A stretch of 34,629 bases of DNA from a virus (lineage: Duplodnaviria; Caudoviricetes), in the IMG/VR virus record IMGVR_UViG_3300032320_002793, positions 1 to 34,629 of that record, one strand, 5' to 3'. This document shows, in pieces, positions 5,475 through 34,629 of the stretch (position 1 is the first letter of the stretch; every line of letters begins with the position of its first letter). The notes under the pieces were generated by a model. It did no database searches and was not told the origin of the DNA. It saw nothing but the letters and a program-made list of their open reading frames with translations. Position numbers and translations under genes: made by a program.

Positions 5475-7421
5475 ATGGCTGATACTACATTATTTGGTAG
5501 ACTTAAGAAACTCTTTTCCACAGACGTTGTGATAAGAAATGTGGGTGGTAACGAACTTAAAGTAATGGATACCGATGGCATCCAAAGACTTGGTGTTCTT
5601 CAAACCAACTCATTATACGACAAATACGCTCGTTTATACACTACATCAGGTGGGTGGAATTACAATCTATCTCAACAACTTAATTATCCTACTACAAGAA
5701 TTCAATTATATGCTGACTATGAAGCAATGGATACAGATGCTATTTGTGCATCTGCCCTTGATATTGTCGCAGATGAATGTACTTTACGCAACGAACAAGG
5801 TGAAGTATTACAAATTAGAAGTAGCGACGAAACAATTCAAAAGATTTTATATAACTTATATTATGACGTGTTAAACATTGAGTTTAACTTATGGTCTTGG
5901 ACTCGTAATATGTGTAAGTATGGTGATTTCTATCTTAAATTAGAAATTAGTGAAAAATTTGGTGTGTATGGTGTTATTCCATTCTCATCTTATAATATTT
6001 TAAGAGAAGAAGGATATGATTTACATAAACCACAATCAGTACGTTTCAAATATGATCCTACTTCACAAGCAACATCACCTTTAGGATATGTGTTATCAAC
6101 TCCTATTATCGATTCAGAGGGTAAGGGTGTTTATTTTGATAACTACGAAATGGCTCACTTTAGATTATTAAGTGACTTTAACTATTTACCTTATGGCCGT
6201 TCTTACTTATAACCAGGCCGTAAATTATATAAGCAATTAGTATTAATGGAAGATGCGATGTTAATTCATCGTATTGTTCGTGCTCCTGAAAAGAGAGTAT
6301 TCTATGTTAACGTGGGTAATATTCCACCTAACGAAGTAGAAGGTTACATGCAGAAGATGATCAACAAAATGAAGAAAACTCCAGTAGTTGATCCTCAAAC
6401 TGGCCAATATAACCTAAGATACAACATGCAGAACGTACTTGAGGATTTCTATATCCCGGTTCGTGGTGGTGATCAAACGACCAAAATTGACACTACAAAG
6501 GGTCTTGAATATGCGGCTATCGAAGACGTAACATACTTACGTGATAAACTTTTCTCCGCTTTAAAAATCCCTAAAGCGTATTTAGGCTATGAAGGTGAAT
6601 TAAGTGGTAAAGCTACATTAGCTGCTGAAGATATTCGCTTTGCTCGTACAATTGAGCGTATCCAAAAGATATTAGTTAGTGAATTGACTAAAATTGGTTT
6701 AGTTCACTTATATTCTCAAGGATATACTAACGAACAATTGACAAATTTTGAATTGTCATTAACAACCCCATCAATTATATACGATCAAGAACGTATTGAG
6801 TTATTAAAGTCTAAGATTGAATTAGCAGGCAGCATTATGGAAAATAATTTAATGCCTACTGATTGGATTTACGATAATATCTTACACTTATCTGAAGATG
6901 AAATTAGTGAAATTAGAGATTTACTTGCTGAAGATAAGAAACGTGAGTTTAGATACGAACAAATCAAAACAGAAGGTAATGACCCATTAGAATCAGGCCA
7001 AGCCTATGGTACACCACACCAATTAGCATCGCTATATGGTAAAGGTAGACAAACTACACAGACTAAAGAAGATGTACCTAAAGGATATGATGAAGATAAT
7101 GATCAATATCCAGAACAACCGGTTCCAGGAAGACCTCAAAAAGGTGTTGATCATGATGATCAAGATAGCAATTTTGGACGCGATAGATTGGGTAAAGATG
7201 ATCTTAAAGGTCCGGGTAAGGATGCTGATGGAATGGATAAATATAATGTTAAAACCCGCGCTAATACAAGTAATAACATGAAACTTGAAAACGCAGGTAC
7301 AACAGCAGTATTCTTACAAAATAAAAATATGTTTGACAGTTTAAAAAGTTCGCGAAAAATTAATTTGTTTGAGCAAAGTGGTTTATTAAACGAGGACAAC
7401 ATCCGCGAGGAAATTGAATAA
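5475..7421 (+). CDS. gp20: Portal vertex protein (T4 gp20-like), one reading frame interrupted by a single in-frame TAA at 6210-6212
   Basis: ORFs 5475..6212 and 6246..7421 are in the same frame and read YLPYGRSYL*PGRKLYKQLVLMEDAMLIHRIVRAPEKRVFYVNVGN. gp20 motifs include EDA..I.R..RAPE.RVFY, 'EDFYIPVRGG' and 'LFSALKIP'. Lies directly after terL. Confidence 0.93.
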
Positions 7422-17831: not shown

Positions 17832-18112
17832 TGATAAAACTTAGTAATTTTTTAAACGAAAGAGAAGTAGGAGAAACAGAAATTGATTCTAAAACAGGCA
17901 TAAAAACTACTTTAACTAATATCGACCCAGAAACAGACAAGTATTCTTGGGATGTATCATATGAAGTTGACCCCCAGTTTTTATATAATAAATTAAATGA
18001 TTTAGTAATATATCTTAAAAAAGCAGAAGAGGGATCTGAATTAGCTAAATTTAGAGATATACTTAAAAATTTAAAAAATAAAACTGCTAGAGTAATAAAC
18101 CAAAAGAAATAA
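17831..18112 (+). CDS. Hypothetical protein (93 aa, start revised to ATG 17831), possible internal head protein
   Basis: TAATG overlaps at both ends; starts MIKLSNFLNE. Confidence 0.7.
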   Translation: MIKLSNFLNEREVGETEIDSKTGIKTTLTNIDPETDKYSWDVSYEVDPQFLYNKLNDLVIYLKKAEEGSELAKFRDILKNLKNKTARVINQKK

Positions 18113-18994: not shown

Positions 18995-19002
18995 ATATTT
19001 AT
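18995..19002 (+). promoter_or_regulatory. ATATTTAT putative late promoter motif
   Basis: 29 nt before fibre gene ATG 19032. Confidence 0.6.
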
Positions 19003-19031: not shown

Positions 19032-20936
19032 ATGCCGTCATTCATAAGTACAAACGGGATACAAAGTGGTAGCTTAATTGAAGCTTCACAAGTATTAAAC
19101 ATCATTAACGCACTTAATGGTGTAACCTCATCAAATGTTCAAATAGGTGGTGCCCTTATATTATCATCTTCAGCTGATCTTGTATTACAACCAGGTGCGC
19201 TTACTCAAAACAATGTTGCTCCAACAACTTTAACCTACGATACAGGTTCAGGTTTAGTATACTATAGTACAGTTACTCCAGGTGCTTCAGGTACTTCAGG
19301 TACTTCAGGTACTTCTGGTGGTGCCGGTGCTTCTGGTTCATCGGGTACATCAGGTACTTCAGGTGGAACTGGTTCATCAGGTACAAGTGGTACTTCTGGT
19401 ACTAATGGTTCTTCAGGAACTTCAGGTGGTAGTGGTTCAAGCGGTACATCAGGTACTTCAGGTGGAACTGGTTCAAGCGGTACATCAGGTACTTCAGGAA
19501 CTAATGGTTCAAGTGGTACTTCAGGTATAAACGGTACAGCAGGTACTTCAGGTACAAGTGGTATAAATGGTACATCACCTTCTTATGCTACTACTTCTAC
19601 TATGGTAGTTAACTTATCATCAGTAGTAGTAGGTAATACTTTTACTCTTACAAATTTAGCAACAACAAATTTAGCATACACAGTAGGTACAGCAATAGCT
19701 GTAGCTTATGATGTAAATAATTTCTTTGAAGGCCACGTTAGCGCATATGCTGGCGGAGCTCAGATTTCAATATATGTTGATGAAGTAACAGGCTCAGGAA
19801 GTTTTGCCACATGGAACGTAAATTTAACAGGTAACGCTGGTACTTCAGGTTCTTCAGGAACATCAGGTTCAAATGGCACTTCAGGTTCTTCAGGTACAAA
19901 CGGTACTTCAGGAACTTCAGGTACAAACGGTACAAACGGTACTTCAGGAAGTAATGGTACAAATGGTACAAGTGGTTCTTCAGGTACAAGTGGTATAAAT
20001 GGTACAAGTGGTTCTTCAGGAACTTCAGGTACAAACGGAACTTCAGGTTCAAGTGGAACTTCTGGTTCTTCAGGTAGTTCAGGTTCAAGTGGTACATCAG
20101 GAAATGGTACTTCAGGTTCATCTGGTACAAGCGGTGTAGCTGGTACTTCAGGTTCATCTGGTACATCAGGTATAAATGGTACAAGTGGTTCTTCAGGAAC
20201 TTCAGGTGCTAATGGTGCAAATGGCTCTTCAGGCACATCAGGATCTTCAGGCACATCAGGATCTTCAGGTTCATCAGGTACTTCAGGAAATGGTACTTCA
20301 GGATCAAGTGGTACAAGTGGTATAGCTGGTACTTCAGGTTCATCAGGTACTTCAGGTGCTACAGGTGCTGCTGGTTCAAGTGGAACTTCAGGTTCATCAG
20401 GTACTTCAGGTGCTACCGGTGCTTCTGGTTCAAGTGGAACTTCAGGTTCTTCAGGAACTTCAGGCATAGGCACAAATGGTTCATCAGGTACATCAGGCAC
20501 TTCAGGTGCCGGTGCTGCTGGTGCTCCTCAAATGTATCAAGTAGAAATTTTATTTAGTGGTGGTGCTATTGATACTGCAACAAATAATGGTATTGGTACT
20601 GTATTAGGACCTAATGGTGAAAACCAAGCAACTTTAGTAGCTGCGGGTTGGGTATTTACTTGCCCAACAACTTCAAGAATTACTATTACAAGACCTTCAG
20701 GTAAAAGAGTTCAACCTCTAACTGCTATATTAACTAATGGCCAAACATCATCAGGTGGTGCTCAGGTAGTTACAAAAGCACCTAATGGTATTTCATCAGC
20801 TGCTTACTCAGCAATTCAAACATATTCAGGTGGTGCATTTACTACCTTAGATATATACGCATTAACTAATGCAAATACAGGGGTAGCAGCCGCAGGTACT
20901 GCATCTTGTTGGGTTACTTTTGGTTTAATAAGTTAA
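19032..20936 (+). CDS. Ser/Thr-rich Gly-X-Y repeat fibre protein 1 (634 aa)
   Basis: Two (GTS/GSS/GTN)n tracts separated by a ~85-aa beta-rich module; non-repetitive N- and C-terminal domains. Confidence 0.85.
   Translation: MPSFISTNGIQSGSLIEASQVLNIINALNGVTSSNVQIGGALILSSSADLVLQPGALTQNNVAPTTLTYDTGSGLVYYSTVTPGASGTSGTSGTSGGAGASGSSGTSGTSGGTGSSGTSGTSGTNGSSGTSGGSGSSGTSGTSGGTGSSGTSGTSGTNGSSGTSGINGTAGTSGTSGINGTSPSYATTSTMVVNLSSVVVGNTFTLTNLATTNLAYTVGTAIAVAYDVNNFFEGHVSAYAGGAQISIYVDEVTGSGSFATWNVNLTGNAGTSGSSGTSGSNGTSGSSGTNGTSGTSGTNGTNGTSGSNGTNGTSGSSGTSGINGTSGSSGTSGTNGTSGSSGTSGSSGSSGSSGTSGNGTSGSSGTSGVAGTSGSSGTSGINGTSGSSGTSGANGANGSSGTSGSSGTSGSSGSSGTSGNGTSGSSGTSGIAGTSGSSGTSGATGAAGSSGTSGSSGTSGATGASGSSGTSGSSGTSGIGTNGSSGTSGTSGAGAAGAPQMYQVEILFSGGAIDTATNNGIGTVLGPNGENQATLVAAGWVFTCPTTSRITITRPSGKRVQPLTAILTNGQTSSGGAQVVTKAPNGISSAAYSAIQTYSGGAFTTLDIYALTNANTGVAAAGTASCWVTFGLIS
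19280..20526 (+). repeat. Degenerate 9-bp tandem repeats (GGTACTTCA/GGTTCATCA type) encoding GTS/GSS
   Basis: Visible tracts at ~19280-19577 and ~19839-20526. Confidence 0.9.
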
Positions 20937-20958
20937 AAATTTTTAATATAAAAATAAA

Positions 20959-23900
20959 ATGGCAGTACAGACTCCCGACATTTCGATAATAGGTAAAATC
21001 CCCTTTGGTGGATTTAGTGTATCACAATCTTTCAGTTCTGGAAGTAGTGATTACAATGGTACACCTTATGTATTTGAATGTACTTTTGAAATAGTACAAC
21101 AAGCAGGAGCTTCACCATATCCTGCATCCAACCCAGATGTATATAATGCTTATTCAATTAATCCTGGATTTAAATTTGCTCTTCCCTCAGGAAAAGTATA
21201 TGATGTAGTAACAGTTAATACAACAACTACTACAGCAGCAACTATAGGATTAAGAGATACAGATTTAAATATATTTGTTAACTCACAATTAGATCCACCA
21301 GATAACCTTCCCAATGAAGAACAATATGGTGTTTTCTTTCCTATAGTAAGTGGTTCAGCGCAATTATCAAATTTACAACAACAAGTTGCTAACTTTTCTC
21401 TTGCCTCTTATTGGGTTTCAGATTTAATAGGAGCTCAAATTACTAACATTGCTGAAAATGGTGGAGGAAGCGGAAGTGGCTCATCAGGTACATCAGGTAC
21501 TTCAGGAGCTAACGGCTCTTCAGGTACATCAGGTTCTAGTGGTACTTCAGGTGCTACTGGTTCTCCGGGTGCTGCCGGTTCATCAGGTACATCTGGTTCT
21601 TCAGGAACTACAGGTGCTCCAGGTGCCAATGGTTCAAGCGGTACAAGCGGTACAAGTGGTGTAAATGGTACTTCAGGTACATCAGGCGATTCAGGTACTT
21701 CAGGAACTTCAGGTGCTACAGGTGCTGCTGGTTCAAGTGGTACTTCAGGAACTTCAGGTAATTCAGGTACAAGTGGTGCTTCTGGTTCAAGTGGAACTTC
21801 AGGTTCTTCAGGAACTTCTGGTACTTCAGGTATAAGTGGAGTTAATGGTACAAGTGGTTCTTCAGGTACTTCAGGTACATCAGGTATAAATGGTACAAAT
21901 GGTTCTTCAGGTACAAGTGGTATTTCTGGTACTAATGGTTCTTCAGGTACTTCTGGTTCATCAGGTTCAAGTGGAACTTCAGGTTCATCTGGTTCATCAG
22001 GTTCAAGTGGTACTTCAGGTTCTTCAGGCACTTCAGGATCTTCAGGTGCTGATGGTACATCAGGTACTTCAGGAGCTAATGGTGACAAATATAGATCAGA
22101 CGCTACAGGTTCTTATACAATATCGGATCAGTATGGTGTTATATTTGCATCAGCTTCATTAGCATACTCTCCAGTTCAATCAATTATCGTATTAGCTTCA
22201 GGTTCAACAACAAATTATGTTGAAGCTCAAGTTACAAATTATAACGCAGGAAATGGTGAATTATCATTTACTGCAATTAACCATTATGGTTCAGGAACAT
22301 TTGTTAACTGGTCAGTTAACTTAGATGGTGCCTCTGGTGGTGATGGCTCTTCAGGTACAAGTGGTACTTCAGGCGCTAATGGTTCATCAGGTACATCAGG
22401 TATAAACGGTACAAATGGTTCTTCAGGAACTTCAGGAACAAATGGTACTTCTGGTACTAATGGTTCATCAGGTACTTCAGGTGTAGGCACAGATGGTTCA
22501 TCAGGTACTTCAGGTACTTCAGGTGCAAACGGTACTTCAGGTTCTTCAGGTACTTCAGGTGCTGCTGGTGCAAATGGTTCAAGTGGTACAAGTGGTATTG
22601 GATTTAGATGGGAAAGTATTTGGAGTTCAAGCACAACATATACTGGATACGATGTAGTTTACTATCAAGGTAGCTCATATGTTTCAATAGATAATGTTAA
22701 CCTGAATCATCAACCAGATTCAAGCCCAGCATATTGGGAATTAATGACAGCAGCTGGTTCTTCAGGAACTTCAGGTGCTAACGGTGCAAATGGCTCTTCA
22801 GGTACGTCAGGATCTTCTGGTACATCAGGTACTTCAGGAAATGGTACATCAGGTTCATCAGGTACAAGTGGTTCATCAGGTACTTCAGGTGTAGGTGTAG
22901 ATGGCTCTTCAGGTACTTCAGGTACTTCAGGAGTATCAGGCACAAATGGTACAAGTGGTGCAAACGGAACAAACGGTACTTCTGGTACTAATGGTTCATC
23001 CGGAACATCTGGTAATTCAGGTGCTGATGGTTCTTCAGGTAGTTCAGGTAGTTCAGGTACTTCAGGATCTTCAGGATCTTCAGGTTCATCTGGTAGCTCA
23101 GGTTCATCAGGTACTTCAGGATCTTCAGGAACTTCAGGTGCTTCTGGTTCTTCAGGTACATCTGGTAGTTCAGGACAAAGTGGTACTGATGGTTCATCAG
23201 GTACAAGTGGCGAAAGTGGTTCATCAGGTACAAGTGGAGAAAGCGGTAGCTCAGGTACATCAGGTGTAAGTGGTTCTTCAGGTACATCAGGATCTTCTGG
23301 TACATCAGGTTCATCTGGTACTTCTGGTTCAAGCGGTACTTCTGGTACTAATGGTTCTTCAGGAACTTCAGGTACAAACGGATCTTCAGGAACTTCGGGC
23401 ACAGCTGGTTCTTCAGGAACTTCAGGCGAATCAGGTTCATCAGGTTCTTCTGGTTCATCAGGTTCATCTGGTACAAGTGGCGAAAGCGGCTCATCAGGTT
23501 CATCTGGTTCTTCAGGTGAAAGTGGATCTTCAGGAACAAGCGGTTCTTCAGGAACTAGTGGTTCATCAGGCGTAAGTGGATCTTCAGGAACAAGCGGTTC
23601 ATCAGGTACAAGTGGAGAAAGCGGTTCATCAGGTACATCAGGTGCAAGTGGTGATTTATATAGATCAGCAGCTACAGGTTCGTTTACGATAGCTAGTTCT
23701 AATGGTACTATATTCGCATCATCTTCATTAGCTTACTCACCAGTACAATCAATTATTATAGTAGCTTCTGGTTCAATAGTAAATTATGTTGAAGCAGAAG
23801 TTGTAACATACAACACCGGAACGGGTGAATTATCATTTATTGTAATTAATCGTTTCGGTTCAGGAACATTTACCGATTGGAATATCAACTTAGATGGTGC

Positions 23901-26454
23901 TTCAGGAGGTAATGGTTCATCAGGTACTTCAGGTTCATCAGGTACTTCTGGTGCTAATGGCTCTTCAGGCACATCAGGATCTTCAGGTGCCGATGGTTCA
24001 TCTGGTACTTCAGGTATAGATGGAACAAGTGGATCTTCAGGTACTTCTGGTTCATCAGGTTCATCTGGTTCTTCAGGAACTTCAGGTAACTCAGGTTCAT
24101 CAGGTTCATCTGGTAGCTCAGGCTCATCAGGAACTTCAGGTGAATCAGGATCAAGCGGTTCAAGTGGTACAAGTGGTACTTCAGGTACAAATGGTTCAAG
24201 CGGTACTTCAGGTACATCAGGTTCATCAGGCACAAGCGGTACTTCAGGTATCAGTGGTGTAAACGGAACTAATGGTTCTTCAGGCACTTCAGGTACAAGC
24301 GGAGTAGGAACAGATGGTTCAAGTGGTACTTCAGGATCTTCAGGTACATCAGGTATAAATGGTACTTCTGGTTCTTCAGGTACATCAGGCTCATCAGGTG
24401 TAAGTGGAACAGATGGTTCAAGCGGTACTTCAGGTTTAAATGGTACTTCAGGATCTTCAGGATCTTCAGGTTCATCAGGTTCATCAGGAACATCTGGTGT
24501 TTCAGGCTCATCAGGTTCATCTGGTAGCTCAGGTTCATCAGGAACTAGTGGAGTAAGTGGTAGTTCAGGTACATCAGGTTCTAATGGTACTGATGGTTCT
24601 TCAGGAACTTCAGGAACTAATGGTACAGATGGTAGTTCTGGTACTTCAGGAAGCTCAGGTACATCTGGTTCATCAGGTACTTCAGGTTCATCAGGAACTA
24701 GTGGAGTAAGTGGTAGTTCAGGTACATCGGGTATAGATGGCTCATCAGGTACTTCAGGTTCAAGCGGAACTAGTGGTTCAAGTGGTTCTTCAGGAACAAG
24801 TGGTAGTTCAGGAACATCTGGTTCAAGCGGTAGTTCAGGAACTTCTGGTTCATCAGGAACTTCTGGCTCAAGTGGAACATCTGGTTCTAACGGAACAGAT
24901 GGTAGTTCAGGAACAAGTGGTAGTAATGGTACAGACGGTTCTTCAGGAACATCAGGAACATCTGGTAGTTCAGGAACAAGTGGTAGTTCAGGAACATCTG
25001 GTTCATCAGGAACATCTGGTTCATCAGGAACTTCAGGCGCAAATGGTGATTTATATAGAACAACATCAAGTACTTCATTTACTTTAGGTAATGCTGGAAC
25101 AATAACAGTAGGAACAGGTTTAGCTTATTCAGTAGCTCAATCTATAATCATAGCTTATGATGCTAATAATTACCAAGAATGTGAAGTCATTTCTTATAAC
25201 CCAGGAACAGGCGCAATACAATTTGCTGCTCCAACTAGAACAGTAGGTTCAGGAACACAAAGTTCATGGAACGTTAACTTAGATGGTGCTTCAGGTGGTG
25301 ATGGTAGTTCAGGTACAAGCGGTAGCTCAGGTACATCAGGTATAGATGGTTCTTCAGGAACTTCAGGATCAAGCGGTACTTCAGGTACATCAGGTTCAAG
25401 TGGAACTTCAGGTTCTTCAGGAACTTCAGGATCAAGCGGTACTTCAGGTTCATCTGGTTCAAGCGGAACATCAGGTTCATCTGGTTCAAGTGGAACTTCA
25501 GGTTCATCAGGTACATCGGGTATAGATGGCTCATCAGGTACTTCAGGTTCAAGCGGAACTAGTGGTTCAAGTGGTTCGTCAGGAACTTCAGGATCAAGTG
25601 GTTCATCAGGAACGTCAGGTTCAAGCGGAACATCAGGCTCATCTGGTTCAAGTGGAACTTCAGGTGTTGATGGTTCTTCAGGAACGTCAGGTTCAAGTGG
25701 AACATCAGGTTCATCTGGTTCAAGTGGAACTAGTGGAACAAGTGGTTCTTCAGGAACAAGTGGATCAAGTGGTACCTCAGGAACATCAGGTTCAAGTGGT
25801 ACATCAGGATCATCAGGAAGTTCAGGTTCATCAGGTTCATCAGGTACTTCAGGTTCATCTGGTAGCTCAGGTTCAAGCGGATCTTCAGGTACATCAGGCT
25901 CAAGCGGTACTTCAGGTTCAAGTGGTTCTTCAGGATCAAGTGGCTCAAGCGGTACATCAGGATCAAGTGGTACTTCAGTACAATTAGTAGCAACTAATAG
26001 TCAAGTATTATACGCAAGTGGTTCAGGTACATTGGTAGCAACAGGTTCAACAGGATTAACGTTTGACCCAAGTACAGGTGGTGGTACATTAACTGTAGGA
26101 ACGTTAAATGGTACTGTTAAAAACTTTAGAATACCACACCAAACATTAGAAGGATTCGATTTAGTATATTCATCTCTTGAAGGTCCAGAAATTGGAGTAT
26201 ATGTAAGAGGTAAGATTGAATTAGACAATACTATCGAATTACCAGAACATTGGACATGGTTAGTAGACGAAGAAACAATTTCAGTTCAATTAACACCAAT
26301 TTCAAGCCCAGTTGCTCACTATGTAATTGAAGTTAAAGACAATAAAGTAGTGATTAACAGTGAATCAGGAATAGTAAATTGTTACTATACGATTTATGGT
26401 GAACGAAAGGATGTTAATAAGTTAATAATAGAACCGAAACGTAGTTCATTATAA
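20959..26454 (+). CDS. Giant Ser/Thr-rich Gly-X-Y repeat fibre protein 2 (1831 aa)
   Basis: Five GTS/GSS tracts separated by three copies of the ~85-aa module and one Trp-rich CBM-like module. C-terminal 'KNFRIPH...EGPEIGVYVRG' domain resembles C-terminal (chaperone-like) domains of phage fibres. Confidence 0.88.
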   Translation: MAVQTPDISIIGKIPFGGFSVSQSFSSGSSDYNGTPYVFECTFEIVQQAGASPYPASNPDVYNAYSINPGFKFALPSGKVYDVVTVNTTTTTAATIGLRDTDLNIFVNSQLDPPDNLPNEEQYGVFFPIVSGSAQLSNLQQQVANFSLASYWVSDLIGAQITNIAENGGGSGSGSSGTSGTSGANGSSGTSGSSGTSGATGSPGAAGSSGTSGSSGTTGAPGANGSSGTSGTSGVNGTSGTSGDSGTSGTSGATGAAGSSGTSGTSGNSGTSGASGSSGTSGSSGTSGTSGISGVNGTSGSSGTSGTSGINGTNGSSGTSGISGTNGSSGTSGSSGSSGTSGSSGSSGSSGTSGSSGTSGSSGADGTSGTSGANGDKYRSDATGSYTISDQYGVIFASASLAYSPVQSIIVLASGSTTNYVEAQVTNYNAGNGELSFTAINHYGSGTFVNWSVNLDGASGGDGSSGTSGTSGANGSSGTSGINGTNGSSGTSGTNGTSGTNGSSGTSGVGTDGSSGTSGTSGANGTSGSSGTSGAAGANGSSGTSGIGFRWESIWSSSTTYTGYDVVYYQGSSYVSIDNVNLNHQPDSSPAYWELMTAAGSSGTSGANGANGSSGTSGSSGTSGTSGNGTSGSSGTSGSSGTSGVGVDGSSGTSGTSGVSGTNGTSGANGTNGTSGTNGSSGTSGNSGADGSSGSSGSSGTSGSSGSSGSSGSSGSSGTSGSSGTSGASGSSGTSGSSGQSGTDGSSGTSGESGSSGTSGESGSSGTSGVSGSSGTSGSSGTSGSSGTSGSSGTSGTNGSSGTSGTNGSSGTSGTAGSSGTSGESGSSGSSGSSGSSGTSGESGSSGSSGSSGESGSSGTSGSSGTSGSSGVSGSSGTSGSSGTSGESGSSGTSGASGDLYRSAATGSFTIASSNGTIFASSSLAYSPVQSIIIVASGSIVNYVEAEVVTYNTGTGELSFIVINRFGSGTFTDWNINLDGASGGNGSSGTSGSSGTSGANGSSGTSGSSGADGSSGTSGIDGTSGSSGTSGSSGSSGSSGTSGNSGSSGSSGSSGSSGTSGESGSSGSSGTSGTSGTNGSSGTSGTSGSSGTSGTSGISGVNGTNGSSGTSGTSGVGTDGSSGTSGSSGTSGINGTSGSSGTSGSSGVSGTDGSSGTSGLNGTSGSSGSSGSSGSSGTSGVSGSSGSSGSSGSSGTSGVSGSSGTSGSNGTDGSSGTSGTNGTDGSSGTSGSSGTSGSSGTSGSSGTSGVSGSSGTSGIDGSSGTSGSSGTSGSSGSSGTSGSSGTSGSSGSSGTSGSSGTSGSSGTSGSNGTDGSSGTSGSNGTDGSSGTSGTSGSSGTSGSSGTSGSSGTSGSSGTSGANGDLYRTTSSTSFTLGNAGTITVGTGLAYSVAQSIIIAYDANNYQECEVISYNPGTGAIQFAAPTRTVGSGTQSSWNVNLDGASGGDGSSGTSGSSGTSGIDGSSGTSGSSGTSGTSGSSGTSGSSGTSGSSGTSGSSGSSGTSGSSGSSGTSGSSGTSGIDGSSGTSGSSGTSGSSGSSGTSGSSGSSGTSGSSGTSGSSGSSGTSGVDGSSGTSGSSGTSGSSGSSGTSGTSGSSGTSGSSGTSGTSGSSGTSGSSGSSGSSGSSGTSGSSGSSGSSGSSGTSGSSGTSGSSGSSGSSGSSGTSGSSGTSVQLVATNSQVLYASGSGTLVATGSTGLTFDPSTGGGTLTVGTLNGTVKNFRIPHQTLEGFDLVYSSLEGPEIGVYVRGKIELDNTIELPEHWTWLVDEETISVQLTPISSPVAHYVIEVKDNKVVINSESGIVNCYYTIYGERKDVNKLIIEPKRSSL
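21460..25977 (+). repeat. Degenerate 9-bp tandem repeat arrays encoding GTS/GSS
   Basis: Tracts at ~21460-22083, 22335-22600, 22755-23653, 23905-25047 and 25295-25977. Confidence 0.9.
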
Positions 26455-26460
26455 AAAATT

Positions 26461-26490
26461 AAAACCCCTCCCTAAAAAGAGGGGTTTTTT
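26461..26490 (+). terminator. Rho-independent terminator (possibly bidirectional)
   Basis: AAAACCCCTC-cctaaaaa-GAGGGGTTTT followed by TT. Confidence 0.85.
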
Positions 26491-26508
26491 ATTCCAAAAT
26501 TTTTACGT

Positions 26509-26516
26509 ATATTTAT
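26509..26516 (+). promoter_or_regulatory. ATATTTAT putative late promoter motif
   Basis: After the terminator, 16 nt before ATG 26533; would also drive the glycosyltransferase. Confidence 0.65.
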
Positions 26517-26532
26517 ATCAAATATAGTTTAT

Positions 26533-26727
26533 ATGATCAAACAATACAAAACATCCGCTTTTTCTATTCAACATGAAGAAGAACAAAAACAAATAGCTAT
26601 TGCTGACGAAGCAAAACAATTAGAAGAAACTAAAAAAATAGAAGAACCAAAAAAAGAACAACCTAAACAAGTTGAAAAAAAAGAACAACCTAAGGAAGAA
26701 CAACCTAAGTTTGTTAACAAATTATAA
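26533..26727 (+). CDS. Small charged low-complexity protein (64 aa)
   Basis: ORF between the motif and the glycosyltransferase; [KE]EQPK repeats. Confidence 0.55.
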   Translation: MIKQYKTSAFSIQHEEEQKQIAIADEAKQLEETKKIEEPKKEQPKQVEKKEQPKEEQPKFVNKL

Positions 26728-26751
26728 TTAGTTACACATAAATCAGTTTTA

Positions 26752-29091
26752 ATGAAAATATTGGCATCAACCAGTTTTATCGGGACAACGGGCTACGCAA
26801 ATCATTCAAAGTCATTTTTTACAGAATTAGATAAGTTAACACCAGTAAAAATTAGAAATTTTACTATTGGTGAGTCATGGAATGGACATAACAAAACTCC
26901 TCATGATGGAGAACCTTATATAACAGACCAAATGAAGAAAATGTTAACTCTTCAAACATTATGGTCTGGTGAAGGTGATAATAAGAAAAGGGAAGATTTC
27001 CCAATGTATGACTATGAACCGGGTAAAATATTTGATATTAATATTGTTTTAAATGAAACAGACCATTTCTATTTCTATGATAGTTATGGTAATTATAAAA
27101 TAGCATACAACGTTTGGGAATCAACATTACAACCTGAAAATTATTTTAATCGTTTAAAAAACTATTATCACGAACTTTGGGTTCCATCTGAATGGCAAAA
27201 AGATGTAACCATTAAACAAGGATTTCCTGAAGATAAAATATTTGTAATCCCTGAAGGTGTGGATGTTGATACATTTAAACCACTTGAAAACCCACAATAT
27301 CCTGATAAATTCAGGTTTATGATTTTTGGTAGATGGGATTATAGAAAGTACATTAAAGAATGTATAGAAGCGTGGTTAAAGGCGTTCCCACGAAACAAAT
27401 ATAAGGACGTTGAGTTACTTTTATCTGTTGAAAACCCATTTAGCGTTGATGGAATGAAATCTACAGCTGAACGTTTACAACGTTATGGATTACAAGATCC
27501 TCGCATTAAAATTGTTAAATTTCCCCCACGTCAAGAATATATTAACTACCTTCAAAACGGACACGTATTTTTAAGTTGTGCTCGCAGTGAAGGATGGAAT
27601 TTGCCTCTTATTGAAGCTATGGCTTGTGGTACTCCAAGCATTTATTCTAATTGTTCTGCTCAACTTGAATTTACTAAAGGTGAAGGTTTAGCAGTAAACA
27701 TAGTTGGTGAGGAATTAGCATCTAAAGGTGACGGAAAATCATTTAGAAAAATGCCAGGTAGTTATTATAAACCTGATTTTAAACATTTAGTTGAAACTAT
27801 TAAAGATGCTTATGAAAACTTTGAAAAACATAAACAAGAAGCACTTCAAATAAGTGAACGAGTTAGACGTGATTTTTCATGGGATAAACAAGCAAAATTA
27901 GCACACGATAGATTACAAGTAATTTATGGTGAAAACTTTAAAGACGGAAAATATATTAATAAAGTTAAACCTAAAATAGCACATAATTTTATCAATAAAG
28001 CTTTTGTTCAAGTAGAAAAATCAGATGAAGATTTAACTGTTGAATTTATTGATAAAAAAGATAATAAAGAAGTATTTAAAACAATATTAAAAGAAGGACA
28101 TTGGGCTGCTCCTAATAGATCATATTTTACTGATTGGAAAATTGTAGTAAAAGATCCATCCGGGGAAATAGTTTATCAACACGATTACAATTGTGAAGGT
28201 AAACGTGTTTATGTAGCACTTGAATCAAAATCTTTAGGCGATACGTTAGCGTGGTTTCCTCAATTAGAAGAATTTAGAAAAAAACATAATTGTAAACTTA
28301 TTGCTTCAACATTCTGGAATCACTTCTTTGAAGGACAATATCCTGAGATTGAACTCATTAAACCAGGAACACCTGTAAGTGATTTATATGCAATGTATCA
28401 AGTAGGGTGGTTTTATGATGATCAAAAAATTAAATTAGATAGTAACCCTGTAGATCCAAAATCACGTCCATTACAAGCAACGGCAAGTGATATATTAGGT
28501 TTAGAATATAAAGAAATTGTACCTAAAATCAATAAACCAAACAAACCAAATCGTTATGGTAAAAAGTTTGTTTGTTTTTCTCCACATGCTTCAGCATCCG
28601 CTAAGTATTGGCATAACGACACTGGATGGCAAACAGTAATTAACTACATTAAAAATGTATTAGGTTATGAAGTAGTAATGATATCAAAAGAGTTTTATGG
28701 TAGCGATTGGGAAACAAGCAAATTGCCTGGAAATAAGCGATTTGAAGGTATTATAGATGCTACTGGCGATTTCCCAATAGAGGAAAGAATGGCAGATTTA
28801 TTACATTGTGAATTTTATATAGGCGTAGGTAGTGGTTTAAGCTGGTTAGCTTGGGCATTAAACAAACACGTAATTATGATATCAGGCTTTAGTGATACTT
28901 GGGCAGAATTTGAAACACAATGTACCCGTATCATTAATAAGGATGTATGTAATTCATGTTTTAACAATTTTAGATTAGACGCCGGAGATTGGAATTGGTG
29001 TCCTGCTCATAAAGGTACGCCAAGACAATTCGAATGTACTAAAAAAATACCCGCAACTTGGGTAGTTGATGCTATAAATCAAATAAAATAG
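26752..29091 (+). CDS. Bifunctional glycosyltransferase: N-terminal GT4-like domain plus C-terminal TibC/Aah-type (BAHT) protein O-heptosyltransferase-like domain
   Basis: GT4 signature 'RSEGWNLPLIEAMACGTP' and 'GVDVDTFKP'. BAHT-like 'KRVYVALESKSLGDTLAWFP' (Asp497), 'FYIGVGSGLSWLAWA...ISGFS', and Cys cluster C733-x2-C736...C750-PAHKGTPRQFE-C762. Confidence 0.85.
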   Translation: MKILASTSFIGTTGYANHSKSFFTELDKLTPVKIRNFTIGESWNGHNKTPHDGEPYITDQMKKMLTLQTLWSGEGDNKKREDFPMYDYEPGKIFDINIVLNETDHFYFYDSYGNYKIAYNVWESTLQPENYFNRLKNYYHELWVPSEWQKDVTIKQGFPEDKIFVIPEGVDVDTFKPLENPQYPDKFRFMIFGRWDYRKYIKECIEAWLKAFPRNKYKDVELLLSVENPFSVDGMKSTAERLQRYGLQDPRIKIVKFPPRQEYINYLQNGHVFLSCARSEGWNLPLIEAMACGTPSIYSNCSAQLEFTKGEGLAVNIVGEELASKGDGKSFRKMPGSYYKPDFKHLVETIKDAYENFEKHKQEALQISERVRRDFSWDKQAKLAHDRLQVIYGENFKDGKYINKVKPKIAHNFINKAFVQVEKSDEDLTVEFIDKKDNKEVFKTILKEGHWAAPNRSYFTDWKIVVKDPSGEIVYQHDYNCEGKRVYVALESKSLGDTLAWFPQLEEFRKKHNCKLIASTFWNHFFEGQYPEIELIKPGTPVSDLYAMYQVGWFYDDQKIKLDSNPVDPKSRPLQATASDILGLEYKEIVPKINKPNKPNRYGKKFVCFSPHASASAKYWHNDTGWQTVINYIKNVLGYEVVMISKEFYGSDWETSKLPGNKRFEGIIDATGDFPIEERMADLLHCEFYIGVGSGLSWLAWALNKHVIMISGFSDTWAEFETQCTRIINKDVCNSCFNNFRLDAGDWNWCPAHKGTPRQFECTKKIPATWVVDAINQIK

Positions 29092-29095
29092 GCGA

Positions 29096-29103
29096 ATATT
29101 TAT
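29096..29103 (+). promoter_or_regulatory. ATATTTAT putative late promoter motif
   Basis: 20 nt before ATG 29124. Confidence 0.62.
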
Positions 29104-29123
29104 TGGGGAATAACCTACAATAA

Positions 29124-30437
29124 ATGGCAAAAAATTTACGAATTATACCAGCTTCTGGTTCAATTTACTTCATACAAGATGGAGTTGCTGAAACAGATGC
29201 GATGAAGATGACGCTTAGTAATAGCTCCAACAACGTTAGAATACAAGATGGTACTACAGGTACTACATTCATGTTTTTTGATAAAACAAATTTACGAACT
29301 GAAGTTTCATCAAGTTTTGCTATCCCCAATGCTTCATCAAGCCCCGTAGCCGCCCCAGTAGGTGGAATTTATTTTAATACCGCGGATGGTAACATTTATA
29401 GAGGTAATGGCTCTTCATGGGCTGCTGCCGCTGGCTCATCAGGTACTTCAGGTGTTAATGGAGCAAAAGGACAAAAAGGTGAAGTAGGCGCTCCTGGCCC
29501 TCAAGGTAATAAGGGTAACACAGGCGCTCCTGGTCCTCAAGGTAATAAGGGTAACACAGGCGCTCCTGGTCCTCAAGGTAACAAGGGTAGTACAGGCGCT
29601 CCTGGTCCTCAAGGTAATAAAGGCCAAAAAGGTGAAGTAGGTGCTCCTGGTCCTCAAGGTGCTAAAGGTCAAAAAGGAGAAGTAGGTGTAAAGGGGGATA
29701 CAGGTGCTAAAGGTGATACTGGATCTAAGGGTGATGCTGGTGCTAAAGGTGATGCTGGTGCTAAAGGTCAAAAAGGTGAAGTAGGAGGTAATGGTCCAAA
29801 AGGTAATACCGGAGGTCCTGGTCCTAAAGGTAATACTGGTCCAAGTGCAGGTATAACTTCATTTACAAACCCAACAGATAACTATGTACTTACTGCTGTT
29901 AACTCTTCAACAATTAATGGTGAAAGTGGATTACAATATGATGGTAGTACATTAACAGTAGCTAGTCAATATAGATTTAGTGGTAATGCCTCAAATCCTG
30001 GAAACGCAACAGCAACAATTTACGATCAGGCAAGTGTAGGACCTACAATTTCAGGTCTTAACGTTAGTCTTAGAGCAGGAAATACACCAACTGAAATAGC
30101 AAGAGTAGGAGCAGGCGGTATAGATGTTTATGGTTCTGTAGTAGCATCAGGAAACGTTGTTGCCTATTCAAGTTCAGATAAACAATTAAAAGATAATATT
30201 ACACCACTTACAAACGCTTTAGAAAAAATACTTAAATTAAATGGTGTCAAATGGGATTGGAATAACAAAGCAAATGATTCAACTAAACTTCTTCCTAATA
30301 CTGGTTTAATTGCTCAGGAGGTACAAGAAGTGTTACCTGAAGTAGTTAAAGAAGGGAATGACGGATATTTAGCTTTAGATTATGAAAAAATGATAGGATT
30401 ACTAGTCGAAGCAATTAAAGAATTAGCAAATAAATAA
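29124..30437 (+). CDS. Collagen-like fibre protein with a C-terminal intramolecular chaperone (peptidase S74-type) domain
   Basis: Continuous Gly-X-Y tract (GAPGPQGNKGNT, GAKGQKGEV). Autocleavage motif 'SSSDKQLKDNITPL..ALEKILKLNGV.WDW', 'GLIAQEVQEVLPEVV', 'LLVEAIKEL'. Confidence 0.9.
   Translation: MAKNLRIIPASGSIYFIQDGVAETDAMKMTLSNSSNNVRIQDGTTGTTFMFFDKTNLRTEVSSSFAIPNASSSPVAAPVGGIYFNTADGNIYRGNGSSWAAAAGSSGTSGVNGAKGQKGEVGAPGPQGNKGNTGAPGPQGNKGNTGAPGPQGNKGSTGAPGPQGNKGQKGEVGAPGPQGAKGQKGEVGVKGDTGAKGDTGSKGDAGAKGDAGAKGQKGEVGGNGPKGNTGGPGPKGNTGPSAGITSFTNPTDNYVLTAVNSSTINGESGLQYDGSTLTVASQYRFSGNASNPGNATATIYDQASVGPTISGLNVSLRAGNTPTEIARVGAGGIDVYGSVVASGNVVAYSSSDKQLKDNITPLTNALEKILKLNGVKWDWNNKANDSTKLLPNTGLIAQEVQEVLPEVVKEGNDGYLALDYEKMIGLLVEAIKELANK
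29487..29660 (+). repeat. 36-bp tandem repeat (GGCGCTCCTGGTCCTCAAGGTAATAAGGGTAACACA) within the collagen tract
   Basis: Three near-perfect copies plus partial copies encoding GAPGPQGNKG(N/S)T. Confidence 0.9.
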
Positions 30438-30439
30438 TT

Positions 30440-31498
30440 ATGTCTTTACCTTCATCAGGTCAAATAACATTAAATGATTTTAGAGCAGAAATGTCTCAAT
30501 CAAATACTTCTAATTATGGATTTGATGGTGCGTTTTATGGTTTTCAATATCCTGCTTTTTACCCAGCAATACCTTGGTATTCTCCAATCAATGTTCATTC
30601 GGATAATGCTGATAACTTTGAAACAAATCAATATTATTGGAACATAGATGCTTGGTATGGTTATAACAACTCTGCCTACTACGAAGCATCAAATACCCCC
30701 CGACCTTGTTATTTTAATATACAACCAAACCAAACAACAGCATCATATGCTACAGCAATGATAATAATGCATGTTGGAACTAATGATGGGACTGTCTCCC
30801 TTAGAATATCAGGTTCAGCTAATGATTTTTCTTCAGCAGGAATAACTACAGCAAGTATATGGTATGGAAAACCTTGGAGCTCTAATGGTACTGGTAGTGG
30901 GTTTAATAATGCCGAGTTAATTTTAATGACTAGTAGTAATCAATTCCAGTATGATGGACTTGATATTTCTCCTTCTTACAATTACACCTATAATGCTTCT
31001 TATGGAGAATATTTGTATTGTATAATTCATAATAATCCTCCTCAACCATCAATTGTACCTTGTGGTACTACTATTACTTACACTGGTGGACAAGCATACC
31101 CAAGTGTAGGAGCTAAAGTAGTAGGAACAGGTACAGGAACTGTTTCTATAGAATTTGAAGCGTTTAATGTACCTGATAGATTTATACTTTATTGGGGTGA
31201 TAATCCTGTAATTGATACTGGGTATAGAGGATATGCTGGTGGTTACAATTATGGTCAATATGCAAGAGGTGATTTTAATGCTTCTTTAAGCGGAAGAGTA
31301 GATCCTCTTACTGGATTAACATATCCAAATACAAGTATTCCTGATACTGCCCCCGATGGTTATCCTTATGTATCAGATTTTAATAATGGCACTTCATCAT
31401 TCCAAAAAACTACAAATCAACCTATTACTACAACAACTAATGTTTATGCACCTATGGCGGGTACTGCTTGGAATTACAAAGTAGGTTGCCCCGTTTAA
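30440..31498 (+). CDS. Putative fibre-tip adhesin/receptor-binding protein (352 aa)
   Basis: Starts 2 nt after the S74 fibre gene. N-terminus MSLPSSGQITLNDF resembles proteins that follow chaperone-processed fibres; Tyr/Asn/Gly-rich beta composition. Confidence 0.6.
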   Translation: MSLPSSGQITLNDFRAEMSQSNTSNYGFDGAFYGFQYPAFYPAIPWYSPINVHSDNADNFETNQYYWNIDAWYGYNNSAYYEASNTPRPCYFNIQPNQTTASYATAMIIMHVGTNDGTVSLRISGSANDFSSAGITTASIWYGKPWSSNGTGSGFNNAELILMTSSNQFQYDGLDISPSYNYTYNASYGEYLYCIIHNNPPQPSIVPCGTTITYTGGQAYPSVGAKVVGTGTGTVSIEFEAFNVPDRFILYWGDNPVIDTGYRGYAGGYNYGQYARGDFNASLSGRVDPLTGLTYPNTSIPDTAPDGYPYVSDFNNGTSSFQKTTNQPITTTTNVYAPMAGTAWNYKVGCPV

Positions 31499-31509
31499 AA
31501 TTAAATATT

Positions 31510-31875
31510 ATGTCTACACTTCCTATTTATTTTACTGTTAATTATACCCCACCTCAATATAAAATTGATTGGAACTTTACTACTGATGCATATATTTCTG
31601 ATTTACAAATATTGGTAAATGGTACTCAAGTAGTTTATGCTACTTCAAACAATGCTGGTTTCTTCTTTATTAATCCGGGTGATTATGTTCAGGCCAATAC
31701 AAATGGTACACCTACATACCCCCTATTAGCAGATGCTTACTTGTATGTTTATGATAGTGTTAATGGTGTACTATATGAAAGTACAAATACTGCTTATTTT
31801 GGTGTCTCTAACACATATGGACCTTATTATCCCTCAGGGGATGGTGAAATAACCGCTAACATTCATGAATATTAA
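31510..31875 (+). CDS. Hypothetical Tyr-rich beta protein (121 aa, start revised to ATG 31510)
   Basis: ATG 11 nt after the upstream stop with an A-rich leader; the listed start at 31468 is a TTG overlapping the previous gene. Confidence 0.65.
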   Translation: MSTLPIYFTVNYTPPQYKIDWNFTTDAYISDLQILVNGTQVVYATSNNAGFFFINPGDYVQANTNGTPTYPLLADAYLYVYDSVNGVLYESTNTAYFGVSNTYGPYYPSGDGEITANIHEY

Positions 31876-31909
31876 TTTTTAGTTTATTTATATTCTCATG
31901 GAATCATTC

Positions 31910-31917
31910 ATATTTAT
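31910..31917 (+). promoter_or_regulatory. ATATTTAT putative late promoter motif
   Basis: 22 nt before ATG 31940. Confidence 0.62.
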
Positions 31918-31939
31918 TGTAGATAAATTCTACACATAA

Positions 31940-34629
31940 ATGGCCAAGAATATACGTATTATTCCCGAATCGGGCTCCATTATTTTGATGCAAACCGGTA
32001 AATCGGAAGAGCAATCAGTTCACTTAGAAATTAGTGGATCTGATCCTTCTGGTAGTGTCTCTGTAACAAATAATGCAGGAACCGAAATTTTCAAAATAAA
32101 CAACCAGTTTGTTTCAAACTCCGTAGTTCAGTTTACTGAAGGTGGTTTAGTATTACAAAATGCTACTACTGCATCAATCACTAGTCCGTATAACGGCCAA
32201 ATGATTTTTGACAATGTGGATGGTAAAGTATATCATTTCTGGGATGGTATTTGGCTAGATAGATCTGGTACATCTGGTACTTCTGGTACTGCTGGTTCAT
32301 CAGGTACTTCAGGTACTTCAGGTGCTACCGCCGCAGCGGGTGGTTATACACTATATATGAACTATATAGATGATCTTTCACCTAACGTTGCTTATATTAG
32401 TAATCTTGCTTTATCTACAGCTATTGGAACTGCAATCACATCTGCTTCTTCTGTTACCTATAACCCAGCACAAAATACAGATGTTAGTTTATTAAGTTTA
32501 TCTCCAGATTTAGCACAAGCTCAAACTACTATTACATTTACTACTCCAAACAGTGCTACAGTAGATGTATTAGTAAGTCAATTTGCAATATATAAAAATC
32601 AAATTCCTGCAGCATCAAATAATATTCTTCCTCCAGGTATTTGGGAAATGAATATATATGCAAAAGCAGATGGTGCTAACGATAAAGATAATATTGGATT
32701 AAGATACTTTTTATTAGGCAGAACTTCAGGTTCAAATTCATGGGTAAATTTAGTTGCTAATGGTTCGGATTTAGGATATTTGTATGACAATACAACTTCT
32801 CAGATAATTTCTCTGAACCTGTATATTCAGAATCCAATTGATATTTCTACTTATGACACTTTATTAGTTGCCATAACATCAAGAAATAGAAACGCGAATC
32901 CACATCAAGCAGAAGTTTATTTCCAATCTTCAAATACATACTCTCATATACACACTACTTTCGCACAAGTAGGTCCTGCTGGTTCATCTGGTACATCCGG
33001 CACTTCTGGTACATCAGGTTCATCAGGAACTTCTGGTGTTCAAGGTGCTAAAGGACAAAAAGGTGCAGATGGTAATGCTGGTACTTCTGGTTCATCAGGT
33101 ACTTCAGGCTCAAGTGGCTCAAGTGGTACTTCTGGTTCATCAGGTACTTCAGGCTCAAACGGAACAGATGGCTCTTCAGGAACTTCAGGTTCATCTGGTT
33201 CATCTGGTTCTTCAGGATCTTCAGGTACAAGTGGTTCTTCAGGAACTTCAGGTTCTGATGGTTCAAGTGGAACTTCAGGTTCATCTGGTTCATCAGGTTC
33301 ATCTGGTTTCTCAGGTACAAGTGGTACAGATGGTTCATCTGGTTCTTCAGGTTCATCAGGAACTTCAGGCTCAAGTGGCACTTCAGGTTCATCTGGTTCA
33401 AGCGGAACTTCAGGTTCTTCAGGAACTAGTGGTACTTCAGGTTCATCTGGTACCTCAGGTTCAAGCGGAACATCAGGTTCTGATGGTACAAGTGGTAGCT
33501 CAGGAAGTTCTGGTTCATCTGGTTCTTCAGGTACTTCAGGTTCTTCAGGTTCAAGCGGTACTTCAGGTTCAAGCGGTACTTCAGGTTCAAGCGGTACTTC
33601 AGGTTCAAATGGTACATCAGGTTCTTCAGGAACTTCAGGAACTTCAGGATCAAATGGTACAGATGGTTCATCAGGAACATCTGGTTCAAGTGGTACATCA
33701 GGTTCTTCAGGAACAAGTGGTACTTCAGGTTCATCAGGTACTTCAGGTTCAAATGGTACAAATGGTTCTTCAGGAACTTCAGGTTCTTCAGGTACAAGTG
33801 GTTCCTCAGGTTCTTCAGGTACATCAGGTTCTTCTGGAACTTCTGGTTCAAGCGGAACTTCAGGATCAAGTGGCTCATCAGGTACTTCAGGAACATCAGG
33901 TTCAAGTGGTACTTCAGGCTCAAGTGGAACATCAGGATCATCAGGCTCAAGTGGCACAAGTGGTTCATCAGGTTCATCAGGTACTTCAGGTTCATCTGGT
34001 ACTTCAGGCACTTCAGGTTCTAGTGGTACATCAGGAACTTCAGGTTCATCAGGTTCATCAGGTAGCTCAGGTAGCTCTGGTGTGAGTGGTGATTTATATA
34101 GAACAACATCAACTGATACCTTTACTTTAGGTAATGCAGGTACATTAAACGTAGCAGCAGGATTAGCATATTCTGTAGCTCAATCAATTATCGTAGTTTA
34201 CGACGCAAATAACTTCCAAGAGTGTGAGGTTATTTCATATAACCCAGGAACAGGCGATTTACAATTCGCTGCTCCAACAAGAACAGTAGGTGGTGGTCAA
34301 CATAGCTCATGGACAGTTAACCTAGATGGTGCGTCCGGAGGTGATGGTTCTTCAGGTACAAGTGGTTCTTCAGGTTCATCAGGTTCATCAGGAACATCTG
34401 GTTCAAGTGGAAGCTCAGGTTCAAGTGGAACTTCAGGTACATCTGGTTCTTCAGGTACTTCAGGTTCAAGCGGAACTTCAGGTTCATCTGGTTCATCAGG
34501 TACATCTGGTTCTTCAGGAACAAGTGGTACATCTGGTTCTTCAGGTACATCTGGTTCTTCAGGTACTTCAGGTTCAAGCGGAACTTCAGGTTCATCTGGT
34601 TCATCAGGAACAAGTGGTTCATCTGGTTC
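31940..34629 (+). CDS. Ser/Thr-rich Gly-X-Y repeat fibre protein 3 (>896 aa, runs off the window); not in the supplied ORF track
   Basis: Starts MAKNIRIIPESGSIILMQTG (paralogous to MAKNLRIIPASGSIYFIQDG at 29124), then GTS/GSS tracts and another copy of the ~85-aa module at ~34090-34340. Confidence 0.88.
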   Translation, partial: MAKNIRIIPESGSIILMQTGKSEEQSVHLEISGSDPSGSVSVTNNAGTEIFKINNQFVSNSVVQFTEGGLVLQNATTASITSPYNGQMIFDNVDGKVYHFWDGIWLDRSGTSGTSGTAGSSGTSGTSGATAAAGGYTLYMNYIDDLSPNVAYISNLALSTAIGTAITSASSVTYNPAQNTDVSLLSLSPDLAQAQTTITFTTPNSATVDVLVSQFAIYKNQIPAASNNILPPGIWEMNIYAKADGANDKDNIGLRYFLLGRTSGSNSWVNLVANGSDLGYLYDNTTSQIISLNLYIQNPIDISTYDTLLVAITSRNRNANPHQAEVYFQSSNTYSHIHTTFAQVGPAGSSGTSGTSGTSGSSGTSGVQGAKGQKGADGNAGTSGSSGTSGSSGSSGTSGSSGTSGSNGTDGSSGTSGSSGSSGSSGSSGTSGSSGTSGSDGSSGTSGSSGSSGSSGFSGTSGTDGSSGSSGSSGTSGSSGTSGSSGSSGTSGSSGTSGTSGSSGTSGSSGTSGSDGTSGSSGSSGSSGSSGTSGSSGSSGTSGSSGTSGSSGTSGSNGTSGSSGTSGTSGSNGTDGSSGTSGSSGTSGSSGTSGTSGSSGTSGSNGTNGSSGTSGSSGTSGSSGSSGTSGSSGTSGSSGTSGSSGSSGTSGTSGSSGTSGSSGTSGSSGSSGTSGSSGSSGTSGSSGTSGTSGSSGTSGTSGSSGSSGSSGSSGVSGDLYRTTSTDTFTLGNAGTLNVAAGLAYSVAQSIIVVYDANNFQECEVISYNPGTGDLQFAAPTRTVGGGQHSSWTVNLDGASGGDGSSGTSGSSGSSGSSGTSGSSGSSGSSGTSGTSGSSGTSGSSGTSGSSGSSGTSGSSGTSGTSGSSGTSGSSGTSGSSGTSGSSGSSGTSGSSG
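32975..34629 (+). repeat. Degenerate 9-bp tandem repeat arrays encoding GTS/GSS
   Basis: Tracts at ~32975-34090 and ~34340 to the window end. Confidence 0.9.

Follow-up and report, generated by a model that had tools for sequence, protein, structure and literature searches.

Which molecule does a phage modify when a large glycosyltransferase gene stands among the genes for its fibres? The question is raised by the window, the whole 34.6-kb stretch of DNA analysed here (also the entire record), which is a fragment of an uncultured T4-like myophage. A Pfam scan of its 29 proteins recovered the terminase, portal, prohead protease, gp23 capsid and PhoH, and a head-tail adaptor (PHROG match) is followed by the fibre block set out in Table 1. 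The initial annotation placed a 779-residue glycosyltransferase amid four fibre genes, and this is borne out: it is flanked by a pair of G-X-Y genes on each side, upstream those beginning at 19032 and 20959, downstream those at 29124 and 31940. In the relative L001, whose enzyme domain is 84% identical to that of the window, the tail sheath and tube genes come after the fibre block, so that the fibres and the transferase lie within the morphogenesis region; gene order in relatives positions the fusion enzyme and the fibre block between the neck and tail-sheath genes. Recruitment of relatives through the gene at 18112 yielded just 3 loci. The portal gene (window 5475-7421) is interrupted by an in-frame stop (6210-6212), which is probably an assembly error, since an intact homologue aligns through it in a single frame and contigs from two public runs have a different letter there.

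The motif ATATTTAT is enriched in the window (14 matches against 5.2 +/- 2.2 by chance) and stands 5' of most of its units, with 11 of the 12 copies on the + strand starting 12-37 nucleotides upstream of a start codon; a sigma-70 scan of the window stayed at chance level (44 against 46). The transferase had been described as lying behind the same motif as the structural genes, and a copy at 26509 does precede its unit, but the first gene there is a 64-residue ORF (26533), the transferase being the second gene of this unit, which lies downstream of the hairpin at 26461-26488. This charged ORF (26533-26727), co-transcribed ahead of the transferase, is kept in L001 as a 60-residue counterpart in the equivalent place.

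Table 1. Features of the fibre block, in window coordinates
Feature	Position	Strand	Details
ATATTTAT motif, likely late promoter	18995..19002	+	ahead of first fibre unit
Fibre 1, 634 aa	19032..20936	+	103 G-X-Y triplets, 71 GTS/GSS, no Pro
Beta-barrel spacer of fibre 1	19578-19829		one copy
Fibre 2, 1831 aa	20959..26454	+	402 triplets, 306 GTS/GSS; three beta-barrel spacers
Hairpin, terminator-like	26461..26488		separates fibre 2 from the transferase unit
ATATTTAT motif	26509..26516	+	5' of the 64-aa ORF and transferase
64-aa Lys/Glu/Gln-rich ORF	26533..26727	+	without family match
GT4 (GT-B) glycosyltransferase domain, N-terminal half of the fusion	26752..27951	+	PF00534 1.4e-10; PHROG 2170 4.9e-36
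C-terminal TibC/Aah-like domain	27952..29091	+	D497, S614, K618, R679, G693, W698, C733/736/750/762
Fibre 3, 437 aa	29124..30437	+	46 ordinary collagen triplets; Peptidase_S74 chaperone
Two genes within the fibre block, 352 aa and ~135 aa	30440..31875	+	no family match
Fibre 4, at least 896 aa	31940..34627	+	cut by window end; 165 triplets, 142 GTS/GSS; one spacer

Domain architecture and fold of the transferase

The transferase ORF (26752-29091, + strand) encodes a GT4 domain fused to a TibC-like domain. Residues ~160-380 match GT4 families in Pfam, the solved relatives of this half being only weak and none close, and residues 408-778 match TIGR04414 at 294.4 bits (cut-off 200) and align with TibC itself (E 6e-53). 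The structure predicted for the C-terminal domain (pLDDT 91.9, from a model built with 52 homologues) displays the TibC-type beta-barrel, GT-B and iron-finger fold, and matches TibC with a TM-score of 0.85 (Foldseek E 9e-36), as against ~0.5 for LPS heptosyltransferases; the suspected relationship to TibC/Aah thus holds in both profile and structure comparisons. The equivalogs of GT9 LPS heptosyltransferases stay far below their cut-offs (RfaQ 23.7 against 467; TIGR02193 16.2 against 185).

Counting the residues named for TibC in PMC4358343 along the pairwise alignment maps the catalytic D110 to D497, within the motif LGDTLAWFP (residues 495-503), and the donor-binding T226, K230, R286 and W305 to S614, K618, R679 and W698, the change of T226 to Ser being conservative; P300 is replaced by G693. 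The hallmark expected from the initial annotation, LGD..WFP, is therefore present, but with three residues rather than two between D and W, and the four-cysteine cluster is found as C733, C736, C750 and C762, which align with the four iron ligands of TibC. D110, K230, W305 and the four cysteines are invariant in all 52 aligned homologues, and R286 is retained in 6 of the 52, the window enzyme included. At the thumb tip F265-V266 of TibC, where canonical rows have I/L/Y then V/I, becomes W653-E654, and the monomer model places a helix there (pLDDT ~77) in lieu of the beta-hairpin of the canonical thumb. As V266D abolishes the TibC ring (PMC4358343), a dodecamer cannot be assumed for the phage enzyme.

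In comparison with the TibC-TibA and Aah-AIDA-I systems of E. coli (PDB 4RAP, 4RB4; PMC4358343), the fold, the catalytic Asp, K230, R286, W305 and the iron finger are common, and a Ser-rich repetitive neighbour is the likely substrate in both. The phage enzyme differs in its ~31% identity, its place in a separate clade, its fusion to GT4, the substitutions of T226 and P300 by Ser and Gly and a thumb tip of W-E rather than F-V. Its neighbours are G-X-Y phage fibres, and no autotransporter partner was found beside it by family match in the window. With neither such a partner nor a thumb tipped by two hydrophobic residues, the enzyme belongs to the TIGR04414 fold family and is not a canonical autotransporter heptosyltransferase. 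By analogy, the TibC-like half likely acts as TibC does, on a different acceptor.

Serine-rich collagen-like fibres

Three of the fibres contain in-register GTS/GSS triplets (71 + 306 + 142 = 519), within G-X-Y runs of up to 125 triplets that match PF01391. Each of the three had been credited with hundreds of these triplets; all three do carry them, but only one in such numbers. Ser occupies 73% of the collagen Y positions in the fibre at 19032, 83% in that at 20959 and 88% in that at 31940, and Pro occurs in their triplets 0, 2 and 1 times, respectively. Fibre 3 (29124) is an ordinary GAK/GAP/GPQ collagen whose C-terminal part matches tail-fibre PHROGs. Because the GTS/GSS triplets continue in register into ordinary collagen triplets (GAKGQK in the window, GPP in the phage Mel-JY01), the term collagen-like fits these filaments better than the earlier designation of mucin-like.

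Fibre 2 additionally has a 51-residue module matching tail-fibre PHROGs 5073/9851 and a C-terminal domain matching PHROG 17490/28536, whose function is unannotated. The S74 chaperone marks trimeric phage fibres; it is found on one chain with the repeats in L001, L009, L011, L013 and L256, and the L001 gene that shares the N-terminus of fibre 4 terminates in it. A 77-residue beta-barrel spacer, repeated five times across the fibres, matches collagen and tail-fibre proteins of uncultured phages in BFVD. It was modelled at pLDDT 96, and its best PDB matches are a phage depolymerase and a tail tip (best match Z 8.2, rmsd 2.4, 71-73 residues aligned), but these matches are middling and the spacer is without a Pfam family, so the model supports no function. 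From the sequences we infer a triple helix and a location in the virion for the Ser-rich fibres.

Related contigs extend the range of such genes. L191:1-11745 holds one fibre gene with at least 1,249 G-X-Y triplets, 1,205 of them with Ser at Y, that runs off the contig end. In L001 a 2OG-Fe(II) oxygenase gene and a fusion of GT4, GT25 and oxygenase domains (L001:15203-18218) lie 3' of the fibre block, and the adjoining fibre mixes GTS/GSS with GPT/GPQ triplets; these oxygenase and transferase genes possibly serve proline or lysine hydroxylation and glycosylation.

Co-occurrence of enzyme and repeats in viruses and bacteria

For 47 of the best 80 among 286 viral relatives of the enzyme, 10 or more Ser/Thr triplets lie no further than 10 kb from it (28 of 40 for loci of at least 19 kb), and searches of whole records added further repeats, often at contig ends. 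Clustering of the enzymes at 90% identity gives 41 clusters, of which 34 show repeats at the locus or record level, and the 7 without them are all fragments of 4-74 kb. Three of the four matching GenBank phage records were examined. In Mel-JY01 (PP395634) a GTS/GSS fibre lies two genes upstream of a GT4 and TibC-like fusion, which is annotated as an FkbM methyltransferase, and LR756501 has more than 1,100 matches to the repeat pattern; the 636-kb LR756504 (L089), which encodes the enzyme (223 bits) with zero G-[ST]-X runs, is a real exception. The pair is also present in complete phages of 66-69 kb, in which a search run without a positive control found no match to the T4-like capsid. The link between enzyme and repeat recurs in T4-like phages, the 66-69 kb phages, a 735-kb phage and two proteobacterial groups. 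Two further observations concern the GenBank records: the Mel-JY01 record starts inside the repeat and its GTS/GSS fibre (L087:2-3052) is mostly annotated as antisense hypothetical proteins, and LR756504 has a gmhA gene scoring above cut-off ~27 kb from the TibC-like gene.

In the reverse direction, 46 viral records of at least 50 kb were collected by the DNA pattern of GTS/GSS and 40 were searched; TIGR04414 was found in 22 of these, and in 6 of the 8 that are at least 90% complete, the two misses among the latter being a giant-virus bin and a 58-kb phage. Hence 18 of the 40 repeat-bearing records, these two included, are without the enzyme, which counts against the fibres as its substrate. 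As a control, 33 of 35 records of at least 40 kb collected by the GPQ-collagen pattern were searched, and TIGR04414 was found in 1 of the 33 and in 0 of the 18 that are at least 90% complete. Separately, two contigs with the GPQ pattern, L407 (enzyme present) and L434 (enzyme absent), were kept out of the control as members of the GTS set as well. The Fisher p of 7e-7 for this difference overstates the association, as near-copies inflate the p values and the control consists of smaller phages of different types, which leaves the comparison confounded by lineage and habitat. Tight linkage is also not the rule, the enzyme lying within ~10 kb in just 8 of 59 repeat-bearing contigs.

Within the lineage itself, 50 of 80 loci recruited by the capsid were searched, the 30 left out being mostly the shortest contigs. 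Both enzyme and repeats occur in 4 records (two of them duplicates), the enzyme only in 2, the repeats only in 5 and neither in 39 (p 0.007; 0.026 after merging duplicates), and in each of the five with repeats only the repeat gene extends to the contig end. For the 20 records followed to the sheath gene the corresponding counts are 2, 1, 0 and 17 (p 0.016), and those relatives whose long fibre blocks contain no Ser-collagen also lack the enzyme. The co-occurrence across phages that the initial annotation suggested examining is therefore observed in both directions, with exceptions.

Bacterial genomes provide a further comparison. In one betaproteobacterial family 4 of 401 genomes have a TIGR04414 match above cut-off, as do 22 of 301 genomes in the order of a Methylococcales MAG, and the bacterial matches fall into two score groups, a canonical one at ~650 bits and a second mostly at 300-335 bits. 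In trees this second group, a bacterial sister clade, falls with the phage enzymes, apart from the canonical TibC types (SH-aLRT 100), and is nested among the phage rows, though the latter may still have a single origin. None of the 7 canonical TibC-type loci has G-[ST]-X runs, AIDA-like repeats being visible by eye in five, and none of 32 weak GT9 matches adjoins such runs. By contrast, of 20 sister-clade loci, which count two partial genes and the two seed genomes among them, 15 carry G-[ST]-X repeats no more than 1.5 kb away, 3 more have poly-Ser, and the remaining 2 are cut by contig ends. The neighbouring repeat proteins examined begin, as judged by eye, with sequences resembling signal peptides, after which comes a (GTS)n tract that varies in length. 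Signal-peptide or lipoprotein-like (GTS)n or poly-Ser proteins stand beside a stand-alone TibC-like gene at L553:2699-3409, L557:429-1289, L563:654-1394, L565:519-1412 and in L516 and L517, all from the samples of the Methylococcales order and the betaproteobacteria, and the two genes are likely to constitute an undescribed bacterial O-glycosylation pair.

These bacterial loci are the strongest independent evidence for the repeat as acceptor of the sister clade. In them the repeat has the look of a variable linker for which poly-Ser can stand in, which fits glycosylation and not a triple helix, and it can evidently serve as a plain linker. The initial annotation had supposed that the phage exchanged an autotransporter substrate for its own fibres; as the bacterial branch also sits beside (GTS)n proteins, the association extends beyond this phage, and the enzyme is better viewed as one of a sister subfamily, which likely has a substrate motif of its own, than as the product of a one-off swap.

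Proposed fibre glycosylation, its alternatives and known parallels

Given that this branch of enzymes travels with Gly-Thr/Ser-Ser repeats in both phages and bacteria, we consider it probable that the TibC-like enzyme O-glycosylates Ser residues of the phage's own fibres, probably with heptose. The initial annotation had proposed that the enzyme glycosylates the Ser-rich fibres, and comparative evidence from both directions now supports this strongly. In late infection the enzyme would take up nucleotide-heptose, made by the host here and by the phage in some relatives. Its TibC-like half would modify unfolded fibre chains in the cytoplasm, with a Ser specificity like that of TibC, which is reported to modify Ser and not Thr (PMC4358343), and the GT4 half would add to the first sugar or act on Thr. 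The modified chains would then assemble as trimers into long glycosylated fibres. What purpose this serves is the least secure step: glycosylation might stabilise or solubilise a triple helix nearly devoid of proline and charge, and shielding or adhesion would be a by-product. A bolder version, which we regard as speculative and somewhat doubtful, takes (Gly-Thr/Ser-Ser)n for a portable glycosylation tag, recognised by a hitherto undescribed sister subfamily of TibC that phages and proteobacteria have in common, and has dense heptosylation of Ser at Y replace hydroxyproline, stabilising an almost proline-free collagen of up to several hundred nm.

With regard to the donor, it had been stated that this need not be ADP-heptose, but heptose now appears likelier than that allowed. 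R286, K230 and W305 are kept, and the retention of R286 makes ADP-heptose the best guess for the window enzyme; other nucleotides are open for those homologues that have lost R286. ADP-heptose synthesis by viruses has been reported (PMC11461863). HldE-like adenylyltransferase and kinase genes lie directly 3' of the enzyme in L010, L064 and L070, their best matches being rfaE domains II and I, below cut-off. Of 44 enzyme-bearing phage records, 12 show HldE-kinase-like and 5 show GmhA-like matches (15 of 44 combined), as against 0 of 4 enzyme-less records, a difference that is not significant (p 0.29). The window, a 34.6-kb fragment, has no nucleotide-sugar gene among its 29 proteins scanned against Pfam, as the initial annotation had it.

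The alternative that survives best, although we judge it unlikely, is that the TibC-like domain glycosylates another phage or host protein (the capsid, the sheath or another Ser-rich protein) and that the repeats are modified by a different transferase, enzyme and repeats co-occurring because both are carried in one surface-modification cassette. These cassettes hold GT4, GT25, GlcNAc-transferase, sulfotransferase and FkbM genes, and with so many transferases sharing them another could be the fibre enzyme. The enzyme also occurs without repeats in LR756504, in G060, which has no fibre between neck and sheath, and in G042, where no repeats were seen, and mycobacteriophage transferases glycosylate capsid and tail tube (cited in PMC12619734). 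Against this reading, in 18 of 20 bacterial loci the stand-alone enzyme directly adjoins a protein with (GTS)n or poly-Ser, the flanks examined showing no phage cassette, and the enzyme is absent from the relatives whose long fibre blocks are free of Ser-collagen.

It is less probable still that the repeats are unglycosylated, or glycosylated only by the host, and serve as bare polyproline-II or flexible tethers, the link reflecting shared ancestry and habitat. The 18 enzyme-less records among the 40 with repeats would fit such a reading, but these are mostly less than 50% complete and their contigs are often broken within the repeat; the collagen of an E. coli prophage does form a stable trimer without glycosylation, but is rich in Pro and charge (PMC3368898). 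The recurrence of the link in the phages and two proteobacterial groups named above likewise argues against shared ancestry and habitat as its source. We give little credence to an action on host LPS or another surface glycan, in the manner of the GT9 cousins, that would alter the receptor: the weak GT9/RfaQ matches, the fold common to WaaC/WaaF (TM ~0.5) and the heptose-pathway genes near the enzyme in relatives are what would be expected of it, but the domain resembles TibC much more closely, having the N-terminal barrel and the iron finger, its gene lies among virion genes behind the structural-gene motif, and none of the 32 LPS-type GT9 matches adjoins repeats. Glycosylation of phage DNA by the fusion, chiefly by its GT4 half, is scarcely credible even though DNA modification by GT-B enzymes of phages is known (PMC12619734), as the Pfam scan found no base-hydroxylating partner in the window, the gene lies within the fibre block and a DNA role for a TibC-like half is not known.

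A search of the open-access literature, covering mostly titles and abstracts, found no description of a phage TibC-like enzyme or of its pairing with GTS/GSS repeats. To our knowledge few cases of phage virion glycosylation are known, and we know of TibC-type enzymes only as partners of autotransporter adhesins. In the mycobacteriophages (Freeman et al. 2023, as described in PMC12619734 and PMC12582341) phage transferases decorate their own virion proteins, as proposed here; there the capsid and tail tube carry the glycans at their C-termini, whereas the fibres would offer hundreds of potential sites, and a TibC-like enzyme goes unmentioned in these two accounts. The Mimivirus collagen lysyl hydroxylase/glucosyltransferase L230 is likewise encoded by a virus, has two domains and glycosylates collagen-like proteins of that virus, but it belongs to a eukaryotic virus and an unrelated enzyme family, and places glucose on hydroxylysine (PMC9614988). 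The side-tail proteins EPclA/B of E. coli prophages are trimeric and, like the window fibres, have G-X-Y domains between globular modules, but they are unglycosylated and rich in Pro and charge, unlike the window fibres with almost no Pro and with Ser at Y (PMC3368898).

If the proposed glycosylation of fibres is true, it would represent a means, widespread among phages, of making heavily glycosylated fibres, the strict repeat being estimated to occur in ~4,200 stored viral stretches, with about half of the long ones tested carrying the enzyme. It would also provide a use for the heptose-synthesis genes of viruses (PMC11461863), a new acceptor motif for a clade of bacterial protein O-glycosyltransferases and a proline-free way to collagen stability. 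PP395634 supplies a GenBank phage with a named host that carries the same gene pair. The gene order and bS21 gene of Mel-JY01 resemble those of phages predicted to infect Bacteroidetes, although its listed host is Microcystis. For the window phage a gene order like that of the bS21 phages and a contig from a Bacteroidetes MAG (L083) offer a Bacteroidetes host as only a lead. Finally, genes for an APS kinase, a cytidylyltransferase-like protein and a sulfotransferase were each found near the enzyme in 8 of 80 loci (for example L059:12193-12588, L053:12563-13012 and L079:3953-4768), hinting at sulfated glycans.
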